This document shows positions 10,011 through 14,268 of a stretch of 64,000 bases of DNA, piece after piece. The position numbers were made by a program, and so were the translations under genes. The notes beneath the pieces were generated by a model. The model ran no database searches, was not told where the DNA came from, and saw only the letters and a program-made list of their open reading frames with translations. The first letter of the stretch is position 1. Every line of letters begins with the position of its first letter. Source of the stretch: Candidatus Heimdallarchaeota archaeon (GTDB taxonomy: Archaea; Asgardarchaeota; Heimdallarchaeia; Heimdallarchaeales; Heimdallarchaeaceae); contig JAEOSZ010000040.1 of NCBI GenBank assembly GCA_016840095.1, forward strand, positions 42,194-106,193. Direction: 5' to 3'.

Positions 10011-11735
10011 ATGACCAAAGGATATCTCAATTTCGTTTTGCATGGACATTTACCATGGGTATTGGAAGCAGGAACATGGCCTCATGGAGAAGTCTGGTTA
10101 CATGAAGCTGCAGCTGAAACATACACTCCTACTCTATCTATGTTAACTGACCTTTCTGAAAAAGAAGGTTTTACTAACATGTTAACTGTTGGTTTGACAC
10201 CAGTTTTAAGTGAACAACTCGCTCATCCAAGTTTTAAAGCAGGTTTTGTTGAGTATCTTGATAACAGAATAGATGCTAGTTATAAAGATAAAGATCACTT
10301 TAACTGGGTTGGAGAAACAGACACTGCACATCTTGCAGAAAGATGGGCTAATTTTTATTCTTCGATTAAACAGCAATTTAATGAGAGATTTAATCAAGAT
10401 CTTTTAGAAGGTTATAAAAATCTCCAAGATAAAGGAGCAATTGAGATTATTACTTGCGGACTAACTCATGGATATCTTCCTTTACTCGGAAAAGAAGAAA
10501 CTGTAAGTGCTCAAATAAAAGGTGGTCAAAGTATCTATAAGCACAGATTTGGAGGAAATGATTCTCAAGGAATTTGGTTACCTGAATTAGCTTATAGACC
10601 AGGGTATAAATGGAAAAATCCAGTTACTGGAGAGGAAATAGATAGAAAAGGTGTAGATTATTATCTACAGAAAAACAATATTGAATATTTCATTGTTGAT
10701 ACACCTTTGTTGAAAGGTGGGAAAGGTATAGGAGCTTATCTAGATAGGTTTGATGCTTTGAAACTACTATGGAATCAATTTGAAAAAGAAAAACCAGAGA
10801 TAGAAGGTTCAGATCTCACTCCTTACAGACCTTACAAAGTTAAAGATTCAAAAGATTATGATAAAGAAGTAACCTTTTTCACAAGAGATAGCAAAACAGG
10901 AATTTTAGTCTGGTCTGGTGACATTGGTTTTCCAGGTGATGAATACTATCTTGAGTTTCATAAGAAGCATTTTCCAAGTGGAAACAGGTATTGGAGATTA
11001 ACAGGAAAAGATGTAGATTTAGGAGAAAAAGAACTCTATAATGATCTAAAAACAATTGAAAGACTAGATGAAAACTCTGAATACTTCTTCAAAATTGTAA
11101 AAGAATCTTTGCTAGAAAATTATTCAAATAACAAGAAGCCAGGTATAGTACTAAGTCCATATGATTTCGAATTACTAGGACACTGGTGGTTTGAAGGTAT
11201 TGGTTTTCTAGAAAGAGTTATCAAGCATGTAAAGAATGATGATGAAATTGAAACTACTACTAGCAAGAAATATCTTGAAATGTATCCTCCAGACAAGAAA
11301 ACATATGTTTCTTTACCAGAAGGATCTTGGGGTGAAGGTAATTTCCATTGGATATGGTTAAATGACAATACAACTTGGTGCTGGAAGTATATCTATGAAA
11401 CTGAAAAATTATATTTAGAAGCAATTGAAGAATTTAAAGCTACAAATTACAAGGATTTTGGAACAGCTAAGAGGTTGATCAATCAACTTGGTAGAGAACT
11501 CTTCTTACTGTCTTCTTCTGACTGGGAATTTCTAATATCCACTTGGGCAGCTAGAGATTATGCTGAGCATAGAGTAACAACTCACTATGAAAATTTCAAG
11601 AAGTTACTTGTTTTGTTCAAAAAATGCAATATTGAATCAATTTCAGATTCTGAATATAAATTGTTAGAAAAGATAGAAAAGGAAGATAGTATCGCTTGGG
11701 AACAAGATGTTTACAAGTGGTTCGAACTACCTTAA
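10011..11735 (+). CDS. GH57 1,4-alpha-glucan branching enzyme (DUF1957 C-terminal domain)
   Basis: VLHGHLPWV, ETYTP, THGYLP, GIWLPELAY (nucleophile), PYDFELLGHWWFEG (acid/base), SSDWEF. Confidence 0.92.
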   Translation: MTKGYLNFVLHGHLPWVLEAGTWPHGEVWLHEAAAETYTPTLSMLTDLSEKEGFTNMLTVGLTPVLSEQLAHPSFKAGFVEYLDNRIDASYKDKDHFNWVGETDTAHLAERWANFYSSIKQQFNERFNQDLLEGYKNLQDKGAIEIITCGLTHGYLPLLGKEETVSAQIKGGQSIYKHRFGGNDSQGIWLPELAYRPGYKWKNPVTGEEIDRKGVDYYLQKNNIEYFIVDTPLLKGGKGIGAYLDRFDALKLLWNQFEKEKPEIEGSDLTPYRPYKVKDSKDYDKEVTFFTRDSKTGILVWSGDIGFPGDEYYLEFHKKHFPSGNRYWRLTGKDVDLGEKELYNDLKTIERLDENSEYFFKIVKESLLENYSNNKKPGIVLSPYDFELLGHWWFEGIGFLERVIKHVKNDDEIETTTSKKYLEMYPPDKKTYVSLPEGSWGEGNFHWIWLNDNTTWCWKYIYETEKLYLEAIEEFKATNYKDFGTAKRLINQLGRELFLLSSSDWEFLISTWAARDYAEHRVTTHYENFKKLLVLFKKCNIESISDSEYKLLEKIEKEDSIAWEQDVYKWFELP

Positions 11736-11780
11736 TACTCTTTCTTTCTCATTCTTAGTGTAAACCTTGTTAGTTTGTTT
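11727..11780 (-). pseudogene. Probable relic copy of a glycogen synthase 3' end
   Basis: Translates KQTNKVYTKNEKERVLR* vs GlgA tail 12802-12855 KQWQKVYLKAKIKKIKM*: 6/17 identical, no gaps, same stop position. Confidence 0.45.
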
Positions 11781-11963
11781 GAAATTCAAGAAAATCCGAC
11801 TAATTGATCAATAGATTACATATTTTTTAATGCTTTCTAGTTAGAAAGAGAATACATATTAATTAAGAATAGACAGATTAAAGATGAATTTAAGCTACTA
11901 AAAAGACCAATAAAATTGCGAATACCAATACCGTTATTATGATGTTTCTCTAATCAGTTTATT

Positions 11964-12590
11964 ATGTCTCGCAAGAAGAAAATCTTCGTCATTGTATTCA
12001 GTATATTCTTTGCAATTGCTGCAAGTTTTGGAGGTTTTGTTCTATACAAATTATGGCCTGCTACTTTGGAAAGAGGTCCTCCCAGTATGGATTTTCCAAT
12101 TCAAGATCCAGATGTCATACACATTCTTGGAGGTTATGGTTATGTTCCGTGGGGTATAGATACTCACAATGGCATTGATTATGGGTGTAATGCTTCTGTT
12201 TACATTGTTGCTTGGTGTGACTTACGTGTAACTGGATTGAAAACTTGGTTTAATGATGGTGGAGGGCACTGGCAGACAAATGTTGGTCTTTCATATAATT
12301 GGAAATACACTTTCGATTGTGTCTTTGAATCATGGGCACTAAACGAGACTTATGGAAATCTCCAACGAGCTGATATTTATGTAAAAGTTGGTCAAAAAAT
12401 TTCAAGAGGAGACATCATTGGTAAACTACTTTATCATGGTGAAGGTACTCATATTCATTTTGGAATGAAAGAAAGTGGAAATGATGTTTGCCCGTACTTA
12501 TTCCTCTCTCCATCTGCTAAGCTTCAATTCGATTCCTTGTGGATTAATTATGGTTCATGTCCAATTGTATGTAATACCACACTTAGCTAA
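11964..12590 (+). CDS. Membrane-anchored M23-family metallopeptidase
   Basis: N-terminal basic patch + TM; HNGID (HxxxD), VKVGQKISRGDIIG, HIHF (HxH). Confidence 0.8.
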   Translation: MSRKKKIFVIVFSIFFAIAASFGGFVLYKLWPATLERGPPSMDFPIQDPDVIHILGGYGYVPWGIDTHNGIDYGCNASVYIVAWCDLRVTGLKTWFNDGGGHWQTNVGLSYNWKYTFDCVFESWALNETYGNLQRADIYVKVGQKISRGDIIGKLLYHGEGTHIHFGMKESGNDVCPYLFLSPSAKLQFDSLWINYGSCPIVCNTTLS

Positions 12591-12739
12591 CATTAAATGT
12601 AATTTATACTATTAAACTGGGAATTGATTTTATTCTTATTAAAACCATCCTTAAACACCTTTAACATCTAAAGACAACCCTAGTTTAGATAACTTATATA
12701 TTGTCGAAACTTTTCCTTATATCCTTCATCAGTACGAAA

Positions 12740-12793
12740 AAGGAAGATAGTATTGCTTGGGAGCAAGATGTCTATAAATGGTTCGAGCACTAA
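12740..12793 (+). pseudogene. Orphan copy of GH57 branching-enzyme 3' end
   Basis: KEDSIAWEQDVYKWFEH* vs gene tail 11679-11735 KEDSIAWEQDVYKWFELP*; 42/48 nt identical over 16 codons, all 6 differences synonymous. Confidence 0.92.
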
Positions 12794-12801
12794 TTTTAAA
12801 C

Positions 12802-14268
12802 TTACATCTTGATCTTCTTTATTTTTGCTTTTAGATAGACCTTTTGCCATTGTTTAGCTGCATTGTTCCAAGAGAAATCTTTGTTCATAATATTTTTCTG
12901 AAGTTTAACAAATTTAGCTTTATCTTTTTTGTAAAGATTAACTGCTCTTTCAATTGCATCAAACATATCATCAGCATTTATCCTATCAAACACAAACCCA
13001 GAACCTTCTCCTGTTTCCTCATTATAATTCTGAACTGTATCTGATAAACCACCTGTATTTCTTACAATTGGTACAGTTCCATAAAGCATTGAATAAAGTT
13101 GGTTTAAACCACAAGGTTCGTATCTACTTGGCATTAGGAAGAAGTCTGCTCCTGCTTCGATTTGGTGAGCTAATCTATTATCAAATTCAATGTTGATTGA
13201 ACAATCTTGACTATATTTCTTTTCTCTGTTTTTGAAATTCTTTTCGATTTTGGAATCACCAGTACCTAAAAGAACAAACTGCACACCTAAATCCATAATT
13301 TTCTTGAATTTCTTCGAAACTAAATCCAATCCTTTTTGAGTAGCTAATCTAGAAATTATTCCTATCATTGGTTTATCTGAAACATCTAGATTGAGTTTAT
13401 CTTGTAAATAGTTTTTACATTCTTCTTTTCCTTTCAAACTCCTTGAATCATAATTTTTTGGAATTAACTCATCTGTTTTAGGATTCCACTCAGTTAGGTC
13501 TATTCCATGAACAATACCATAAAGATCATCCTTTCTTGTCTTAATTACCTTCTCTAATCCATAGCCAAATTGCTTGGTTTGAATTTCTTCTGCATATTTA
13601 GAACTTACTGTAGTCAGAACATCTGTATAAACTATTCCAGCTTTCATGAAATTAAAGACACCATGAAATCCTAGAAGATCATCATTAAGATAGATTTCTG
13701 GAATATTTGCGTCTTTAATTGTTTCAAATCCATACACGCCTTGGTAACCAATGTTGTGAATAGTGAAAACTGACTTTGCATCCTTGAATAATTCATGTTC
13801 TTTGTAATCAGTTTTTAGGAAGAATGGAAGTAATCCTGAATGCCAATCATTTACATGAAATATGTCAACAGGTGCTTCAATAAGTTCTAAAGCTGTGAAA
13901 ATTGATTTCACAAAACTAATGAATCTAATTGGGCTATCTGGGTAATCTTCACCATCTTCTCCAACATAAATGCCTTTTCTATACAAGTAAGCATTTTTGA
14001 TGAAATAAACAGGAATTGTACTATCTGGGTGAATAGTTTCGTACAAATCAAAAATAACTTCTGATTCATTTCCTATCGGTGCTAAAAGATCTTTTTTTAC
14101 CAGTTTGATATCATGTTTTTTAACATCTACACTTTTGTAGAGAGGTGTAAATATGATTACTTTGTGCCCTAATTTTTCCATTGCTTTTGGAATAGCAGAT
14201 GAAACATCTCCTAAACCACCAGTTTTTGAGTAAGGTACAACTTCAGCAGATACAAATACTATCTTCAT
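12802..14268 (-). CDS. glgA: Glycogen synthase (GT5)
   Basis: KTGGLGDV, HVNDWH, FTIHNIGYQG, SRLATQKG, MPSRYEPCGLNQL, TGGLSDTV. Confidence 0.95.
   Translation of the reverse strand: MKIVFVSAEVVPYSKTGGLGDVSSAIPKAMEKLGHKVIIFTPLYKSVDVKKHDIKLVKKDLLAPIGNESEVIFDLYETIHPDSTIPVYFIKNAYLYRKGIYVGEDGEDYPDSPIRFISFVKSIFTALELIEAPVDIFHVNDWHSGLLPFFLKTDYKEHELFKDAKSVFTIHNIGYQGVYGFETIKDANIPEIYLNDDLLGFHGVFNFMKAGIVYTDVLTTVSSKYAEEIQTKQFGYGLEKVIKTRKDDLYGIVHGIDLTEWNPKTDELIPKNYDSRSLKGKEECKNYLQDKLNLDVSDKPMIGIISRLATQKGLDLVSKKFKKIMDLGVQFVLLGTGDSKIEKNFKNREKKYSQDCSINIEFDNRLAHQIEAGADFFLMPSRYEPCGLNQLYSMLYGTVPIVRNTGGLSDTVQNYNEETGEGSGFVFDRINADDMFDAIERAVNLYKKDKAKFVKLQKNIMNKDFSWNNAAKQWQKVYLKAKIKKIKM

Follow-up and report, generated by a model that had tools for sequence, protein, structure and literature searches.

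A displaced GH57 3' end beside an M23 peptidase gene in a Heimdallarchaeum-like genome, and its probable origin by recombination with a related lineage

The DNA analysed here ('the window') is a stretch of 64,000 nucleotides (nt) of contig JAEOSZ010000040.1 from a Candidatus Heimdallarchaeota archaeon. In it, a gene for an M23 peptidase stands between two convergent glycogen genes, GH57 (glycogen branching enzyme) and glgA (glycogen synthase), and is bracketed by two copies of the end of GH57. The first copy is the live 3' end of the gene; the second lies untranslated beyond the M23 gene, next to glgA, and is called the relic below. This arrangement is probably explained by 3'-end displacement, in which homologous recombination with DNA of a related Heimdallarchaeum lineage would have supplied a new GH57 3' end together with the M23 gene, and left the resident's own 3' end stranded downstream.

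The window lies on contig C11 of a Heimdallarchaeum-like metagenome-assembled genome (MAG) of 3.4 Mb, 89% complete with 7.8% estimated contamination, hereafter G000. Protein clusters put G000 beside 'Candidatus Heimdallarchaeota archaeon AB_125' (OLS32328-30), and its AB_125-like sister species, G009 (locus L031), serves as the main comparison. The features of the locus are as follows (aa, amino acids; an asterisk marks a stop codon).

10011-11735, plus strand: GH57 glycogen branching enzyme gene, 574 aa; Pfam Glyco_hydro_57 and BE_C.
11658-12749, no strand: block recently shared with G009, 3.3-3.7% divergence against ~16% outside, from sliding identity, the list of differences and a change-point fit.
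11677-11726, plus strand: repeat copy A, which forms the live 3' end of GH57; its codons read KEDSIAWEQDVYKWFE, then LP* to 11735.
11736-11916, no strand: left scaffold, AT-rich (24% GC) and non-coding; ~97% identical to G009.
11917-12598, plus strand: M23 gene unit, a leader of ~45 nt and the coding sequence; DNA homology to M23 genes in other contexts is confined to this unit.
11964-12590, plus strand: M23 peptidase coding sequence, 208 aa; Pfam PF01551.
12599-12737, no strand: right scaffold, which holds at ~12620-12650 (minus strand) a remnant of a gene for a 351-aa membrane protein.
12738-12792, plus strand: repeat copy B (relic), a displaced 3' end of GH57 that is not translated; reads KEDSIAWEQDVYKWFEH*.
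12802-14268, minus strand: resident glgA glycogen synthase gene, 488 aa; Pfam Glyco_transf_5 and Glycos_transf_1.

The longest direct repeat within positions 11000-13500 is that of the GH57 tail (11677-11725 and 12738-12786; 49 nt, 90% identity, spacing of 1061 nt). Between 11679-11726 and 12740-12787 there are six differences in 48 nt, all of them synonymous third-position transitions. The first-pass annotation of the window had reported them codon pair by codon pair (ATC/ATT, GAA/GAG, GTT/GTC, TAC/TAT, AAG/AAA, GAA/GAG), and its list proved exact. Among the codons of the repeat, only 13% of the possible single-base changes, and 29% of the transitions, are synonymous. Six synonymous changes out of six would be expected with P = 6e-4 (0.29^6) under transition-only neutrality, and with P ~0.008 if one branch had been constrained and the other neutral. 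Both tips encode the same 16 residues, and the new tip brings no different function. Beyond a run of 16 nt the repeat has no identical core, and its copies differ in the way that orthologous alleles do. Compared with G009, copy A shows 2 differences in 48 nt, against a divergence of 16% across the remaining GH57, while copy B differs from the copy A of its own genome at 6 sites in G000 and at 8 in G009. That copies A and B are two alleles, each of which evolved as part of a live gene in its own lineage, is well supported; this would be why they differ at synonymous sites only.

One trivial origin for such a pattern would be an artefact of assembly or binning, that is, a chimeric contig joining the junctions of two strains. 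The estimated contamination of the G000 MAG speaks for it, as does the co-occurrence, in one sample series, of haplotypes with and without the M23 gene, with contigs that break at the haplotype boundary. However, the repeat-bracketed architecture was assembled separately in G000, in G009, in a JGI contig (L063) and in two ENA contigs (L074 and L075), each time with its own differences. The repeat is present in independent assemblies and is therefore not an assembly artefact, an origin to which we give next to no credence.

G000 and G009 are sisters in the trees of both flanking genes. The synonymous divergence (dS) between them is 1.18 to 1.45 in these flanking genes (16 to 18% at the nucleotide level), compared to 0.10 in the M23 gene (2.9%). 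The non-coding scaffold around M23 is 95 to 99% identical. A two-breakpoint likelihood fit gave 3.3% divergence inside a block and 15.9% outside (log-likelihood ratio 69.7), with the left limit at 11645-11672 and the right limit at 12628-12783. The left limit falls inside GH57 and leaves its reading frame unbroken; the first-pass annotation had suggested that GH57 be scanned for a breakpoint near 11679, and this is where one was found. On the right, identity falls from 49/50 (12700-12749) to 38/50 (12750-12799), and from ~12750 onward the glgA side is 17 to 24% divergent from G009. The shared block thus begins just upstream of copy A and reaches about as far as the point where copy B begins, a length of roughly one repeat period, and the final ~60 to 80 nt of GH57, downstream of the breakpoint with G009 at 11645-11672, may be taken as donor-derived. 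The earlier suggestion of two GH57 alleles holds, and that of a recent transfer from a related lineage is well supported by this contrast in dS (0.10 for M23, 1.2 to 1.45 for the flanks). Within the otherwise ~97% identical block, G000 and G009 differ at 6 of the 26 nt of 12668-12693, for which patchy ancestry and local hypermutation are both possibilities.

ENA contigs of this locus were reached through the GlgA 90% protein cluster: L074 and L075 carry M23, L073 and L076 do not. The latter two are conspecific with G009, being 100% identical to it from 275 nt into glgA onward (2 differences in ~3.5 kb), and their GH57 adjoins glgA directly, with its stop 4 nt from the glgA stop. Their live GH57 tail is of the relic type (ATT..GAG..GTC TAT) and ends in FELS*. 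Its first 38 nt are identical to the window relic at 12740-12777; over 48 sites it differs from relic B at 3 in G000 and likewise at 3 in G009, and from the A copies at 5 (G000) and 7 (G009). It has a GAG codon, otherwise unique, in common with the window relic, and the ending FELS* in common with the G009 relic. In the nearest relatives that lack M23, the living tail is thus the relic's allele, and we therefore take copy A and M23 to be the arrival, and copy B to be the resident's own tail. The first-pass annotation, read as saying that the relic was the recent arrival, thus had the direction reversed. It had also asked which of the endings FELP* and FEH* is found in M23-free loci. The codons there are those of the relic, with the ending FELS*; no live GH57 ending in FEH* was found in 20 loci of the genus or in the 90% protein cluster, and all full-length members of the GH57 90% protein cluster end in FELPK. 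The FEH* ending may reflect decay after displacement.

The relics themselves are informative about time. The G000 relic and the G009 relic are set apart by 6 differences in 48 sites, of which 5 fall at third positions. Between these genomes, the third-position difference of live genes is 0.35 to 0.42, and intergenic DNA diverges by ~24%, plus indels. The differences between the relics match those of live genes and not those of intergenic DNA, which argues that each relic died recently, in its own lineage. Decay is visible elsewhere: the G009 relic carries an S>N change, L075, an M23-bearing strain, has a 30-nt in-frame deletion in its GH57 relic just upstream of the glgA stop (TACGAA/TGTCTATAAG), and the relic of G018, a genome of the sister clade, has two stops and a 13-nt loss. 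The relic is thus dead DNA, which is decaying in L075, G009 and G018.

Selection could nevertheless have kept the codons of a functional relic, whether as a small expressed open reading frame (ORF; TTG start, 30 codons, 12701-12792), as a recoding product, or as an RNA or terminator element. The window copy has zero non-synonymous changes, the 30-codon frame is open in both G000 and G009, and the L075 deletion is in frame, all of which would fit such a function. Yet this same deletion removes 10 codons, the S>N change of G009 alters the frame's product, and the two stops of G018 interrupt it. In the window, copy B stands behind an in-frame stop (12686-12688), at most 30 codons follow a TTG, and an ORF scan found no ORF of at least 40 aa that contains it; no Rfam match and no terminator-like hairpin was found either. 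Moreover, the M23-free allele shows the same sequence as simply the end of GH57. An expressed ORF containing the relic was among the possibilities that the first-pass annotation had named as fatal to its proposal; judged at the level of the sequence, no credible ORF contains it, and we consider a functional relic very improbable.

Comparison of L073 and L076 with L031, L063, L074 and L075 showed that in the G009 population, M23-bearing and M23-free haplotypes occur together in one sample series, on a background that is otherwise 100% identical. They differ only over a tract that begins about -185 nt into GH57 and extends to about +275 nt of glgA, and the M23-free contigs break at the boundary of this tract. 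Polarising the tract with G000 as out-group gave 10 versus 8 sites, that is, no direction. Ordinary double crossovers in the flanking genes therefore also move the region, as this haplotype tract shows.

These data leave room for a different history, in which the insertion and the junction duplication were ancestral to G000 and G009, and a later, ordinary allelic replacement made the M23 block alike in both species. In that case the relic would owe its preserved codons to gene conversion by the live tail of its own genome, or to chance. It is in keeping with such a history that the insert sits at an identical position in two sister genomes, with the same join of scaffold and relic, that the right scaffold and the relic also occur in G018, a member of the sister clade, that the maximum likelihood (ML) right breakpoint lies outside the repeat, at 12667, and that the G009 tract ends in the flanking genes, plain double crossovers being able to move the region. 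A relic dead since the split of the two species (dS >1.2), however, should match intergenic divergence, and not show 6 differences in 48 nt with 5 at third positions; each relic is just 3 differences away from the live M23-free tail. Gene conversion would have made B resemble its own A, from which it differs at the 6 and 8 sites given above. Finally, the drop in identity at ~12750 coincides with the start of the repeat. On balance, an ancestral insertion seems rather unlikely.

Several of these observations, and some others, count against displacement as we propose it. The tails are only 48 nt long, and the assignment of alleles rests on 3 to 7 differences. The right scaffold and relic shared with G018 mean that some of the structure is older than the M23 insertion. 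The ML estimate places the right breakpoint at 12667 and not at 12750, because of the six differences clustered at 12668-12693, and the left breakpoint interval lies 5 to 32 nt upstream of the repeat start (11677). No strain of the same species as the window was found to lack M23, and that the relic is the native tail of G000 is extrapolated from the G009 population and from its contiguity with the resident glgA. Lastly, the two haplotypes of G009 diverge by 28% in GH57 (-185 to -60 nt) and by 6.6% in glgA (+1 to +275); with sides so unequal, more than one event or donor is needed.

Under displacement, which we still favour, the incoming DNA would have been a small scaffold made of the foreign last ~50 to 60 nt of GH57, an old junction remnant, M23 together with its leader, what was left of an earlier cargo gene, and the opening bases of a further copy of the GH57 tail. 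A left crossover in the GH57 3' end (~11645-11690) would have joined the donor tail, in frame, onto the resident gene and so produced copy A. With the right join at or in the resident's own tail (~12738-12750), that tail would have been shoved 1061 nt downstream, where it still adjoins the resident glgA as the untranslated copy B. The event may have involved a circle, an 'ends-in' fragment or a linear molecule. In the first geometry, a circle of ~1.06 kb excised between A and B in the donor, or an 'ends-in' fragment, would have entered by a single crossover in the ~16-nt perfectly identical start of the repeat. In the second, a linear double crossover would have combined an exchange on the left, at 11645-11672, with one on the right, where the relic of the donor met the live tail of the resident. 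The right breakpoint range (12628-12783) takes in 12738-12750, and the left one (11645-11672) compares with a repeat start at 11677; its position upstream of that start slightly favours a linear event over a circle. The repeat starts abruptly at 11677 and 12738 after a common GAAAA, a single junction that carries no statistical weight, and the first-ever join at 12738 may have been illegitimate, via GAAAA microhomology.

Displacement of 3' ends is a mechanism already known from bacteria, and the locus described here would be an unusually clear example in an Asgard archaeon. C-terminal displacement was described for rhs genes (Jackson et al. 2009, PMC2935791, as cited in PMC5361080), and the effector modules of type VI secretion systems (T6SS) are displaced sequentially; for rhs tips and T6SS modules alike, homology-facilitated illegitimate recombination was proposed (Kirchberger et al. 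2017, PMC5361080), which an illegitimate join at 12738 would match. As in these systems, incoming DNA would anchor by homology in the body of a resident gene and bring a new 3' end along with non-homologous cargo, leaving the former 3' end as an orphan farther downstream, and the array then spreads among relatives by homologous recombination. The differences are that the new tip of rhs and T6SS genes is a different toxin and the orphan can be reused, while both tips here encode the same peptide, and that the present case concerns a housekeeping glycogen enzyme, a separate cargo gene and an Asgard archaeal host. The locus also resembles Campbell-type integration: a direct repeat of the region of homology brackets the insert, each copy would be a hybrid of donor and recipient, the donor segment would be about one repeat period (1061 nt), and recombination between the repeats would restore the empty site. 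It departs from that model in that no circle was observed, the left breakpoint lies slightly upstream of the repeat start and the homology is only ~60 nt long.

The GH57/glgA junction was then considered across the genus. A GH57 orthologue was found in 21 of 24 other genomes, and in all 14 loci examined in full GH57 and glgA are convergent neighbours, with varying DNA between them. Three of these loci (G012, G013 and G024) have nothing between the genes, whose stops overlap. The other 11 have inserts of 1.0 to 3.3 kb and of at least six kinds: the M23 cassette in G000 and G009, and other inserts in nine genomes (G008, G010, G018, G023, G001, G016, G021, G004 and G003; L022-L030). All of these other inserts encode signal-peptide proteins (LVIVD, beta-helix/NosD, FG-GAP/TSP3, SBP_bac_5, and two unknown families), and most of them are without the GH57-tail repeat. 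The sister clade is very tight in the flanking-gene trees, and insert-free and insert-bearing genomes are mixed within it. By its gene content, the GH57/glgA junction can be regarded as a genus-wide swap site for secreted-protein genes. It recalls the replacement flexible genomic islands, which are kept up by homologous recombination in the flanking core genes (Lopez-Perez et al. 2014, PMC4033161): differing genes occupy one position between conserved neighbours, and the exchanged tracts of the G009 population have their limits inside these neighbours (GH57 at -185 nt, glgA at +275 nt). Flexible islands, however, are multi-gene, whereas this is an islet of 1 or 2 genes and 1 to 3.3 kb, with a tail relic that records the construction of the allele.

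The left scaffold (11736-11916) showed no homology to other M23 loci or to other junction inserts. Within the right scaffold, 12620-12737 matches the right end of the G018 insert (89% identity over 54 nt), and homology continues through the relic. G018 has an intact gene for the 351-aa protein (L024:3106-4161, minus strand), a multi-pass membrane protein with no Pfam family; the window keeps ~8 first codons of it (MVLIRIKS...) and the region upstream. From this stump in a G018-homologous scaffold, it follows that M23 replaced an earlier cargo, in a scaffold that already ended in a GH57-tail copy.

Integrative elements target tRNA 3' ends, and an analogous history may be imagined here: a site-specific element inserted at the GH57 3' end, with the 50-nt repeat as attL and attR, and since stripped of its integrase and the greater part of its gene content. 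The insert does lie between direct repeats, the target gene would be restored by an element-borne 3' end, an empty site exists, and the junction carries differing inserts across the genus. However, a Pfam scan of the insert revealed no integrase, transposase or other recombinase, M23 being its only ORF of at least 60 aa, and none of the other junction inserts examined encodes a recombinase either, only secreted-protein genes. No tRNA, no Rfam family and no terminator-like hairpin was found in the insert. Its ends have no inverted repeats, and a repeat of 50 nt with allelic differences is unlike the target-site duplication of an insertion sequence. The repeat lacks an identical core beyond the 16-nt run, and is missing from most other inserts. 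We judge an integrative element to be quite improbable. A sigma-70 promoter scan of the insert yielded sites no commoner than in shuffled controls; this is a bacterial model, inapplicable to archaea.

A bolder proposal, which we hold to be unlikely, makes the duplicated GH57 tail a portable homology arm and the insert a mobile cassette free of any recombinase. If it were true, recombination between A and B would pop out a circle of ~1.06 kb able to re-enter related genomes at the GH57 3' end, each re-entry displacing the resident tail, and the junction would be an integron-like exchange platform without an integrase.

As to the cargo, the M23 protein scores 34.5 bits against Pfam PF01551 (cut-off 28.7) and matches solved M23 peptidases in PDB (E = 1.7e-4). 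It has an N-terminal hydrophobic membrane anchor and the zinc ligands HxxxD (HNGID, H68) and HxH (HIH, H163). This small M23 family is widespread in Asgard MAGs. The closest homologues (75 to 79% aa identity) lie in unrelated neighbourhoods of Heimdall-group contigs (L060, L061, L062, L064 and L065), which indicates that the small M23 gene moves in its own right from genome to genome within this group. Their neighbours are EF-2 and response regulators, or MazE and a LAGLIDADG protein. A search of the genus outside G000 and G009 yielded M23 paralogues at 26 to 33% identity only, and neither this search nor the homologues at 75 to 79%, in their unrelated contexts, pointed to a donor. Contig C13 of G000 carries a 32% identical M23 paralogue. 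On the strength of its motifs and of published archaeal examples, the M23 protein most likely acts against bacteria, as a zinc-dependent peptidoglycan endopeptidase that is either secreted or anchored in the membrane. Haloarchaeal M23 peptidoglycan hydrolases kill bacteria (Strock et al. 2025, PMC12352652); Asgard archaea are not mentioned in that study. The likeness extends to a PF01551 domain in a murein-free archaeon, a patchy distribution and apparent horizontal mobility. The published enzymes are modular halobacterial or nanoarchaeal proteins with peptidoglycan-binding domains, and the one described here, in contrast, is a small, membrane-anchored, single-domain form.

Asgard archaea are the closest prokaryotic relatives of eukaryotes. 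To our knowledge, gene flow and recombination among them are known almost solely from phylogenies. If displacement is the correct reading, the present locus records one recombination event at base-pair resolution, and the displaced tail both dates the event and gives its direction. The cassette is common to species with saturated synonymous sites, and the empty site still segregates in a natural population; homologous recombination across ~16% nucleotide divergence would then operate in these uncultured archaea. It would do so at a recurrent swap site for surface and secreted proteins, with a candidate antibacterial enzyme as the M23 cargo.

The first-pass annotation had also described a dead glgA tail just downstream of GH57:

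11727-11780, minus strand: possible ancient glgA 3'-end relic; translates KQTNKVYTKNEKERVLR*; inside the block shared with G009.

The translation is as it had been described, while the homology is weak. An nhmmer search with a DNA profile built from the 3' ends of 11 live glgA genes recovered only the live gene (E = 4.5e-35) and no match at 11727-11840, and a targeted run, together with Smith-Waterman comparison against 3120 control segments, gave no signal for 11727-11780 versus the live tail (p = 0.21). With a protein profile of the GlgA C-terminus, the fragment came 6th among the 3048 non-self fragments of the six frames, and it aligned in the correct register. The motif KQ..KVY is present just twice in the six-frame translation, in the live GlgA tail and in this fragment, and G018 has a better-preserved counterpart adjoining its GH57 (nhmmer E = 0.3). 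Positions 11727-11780 may possibly be a glgA relic, which, if real, would be far older than the GH57 relic. The symmetry that had been proposed, with one live and one dead tail on each flank, lacks support as it stands: statistical support for the glgA relic is weak, a real one would be much older, and the structure is therefore not one simple junction duplication.

More glycogen genes are located downstream of glgA. The glgA operon is headed by a gene for a 400-aa protein (15435-16637, minus strand), with a sub-threshold HIT-domain match (E = 7.8e-4; 20.5 bits, cut-off 21.5) and with 68 to 92% identity kept across the genus.

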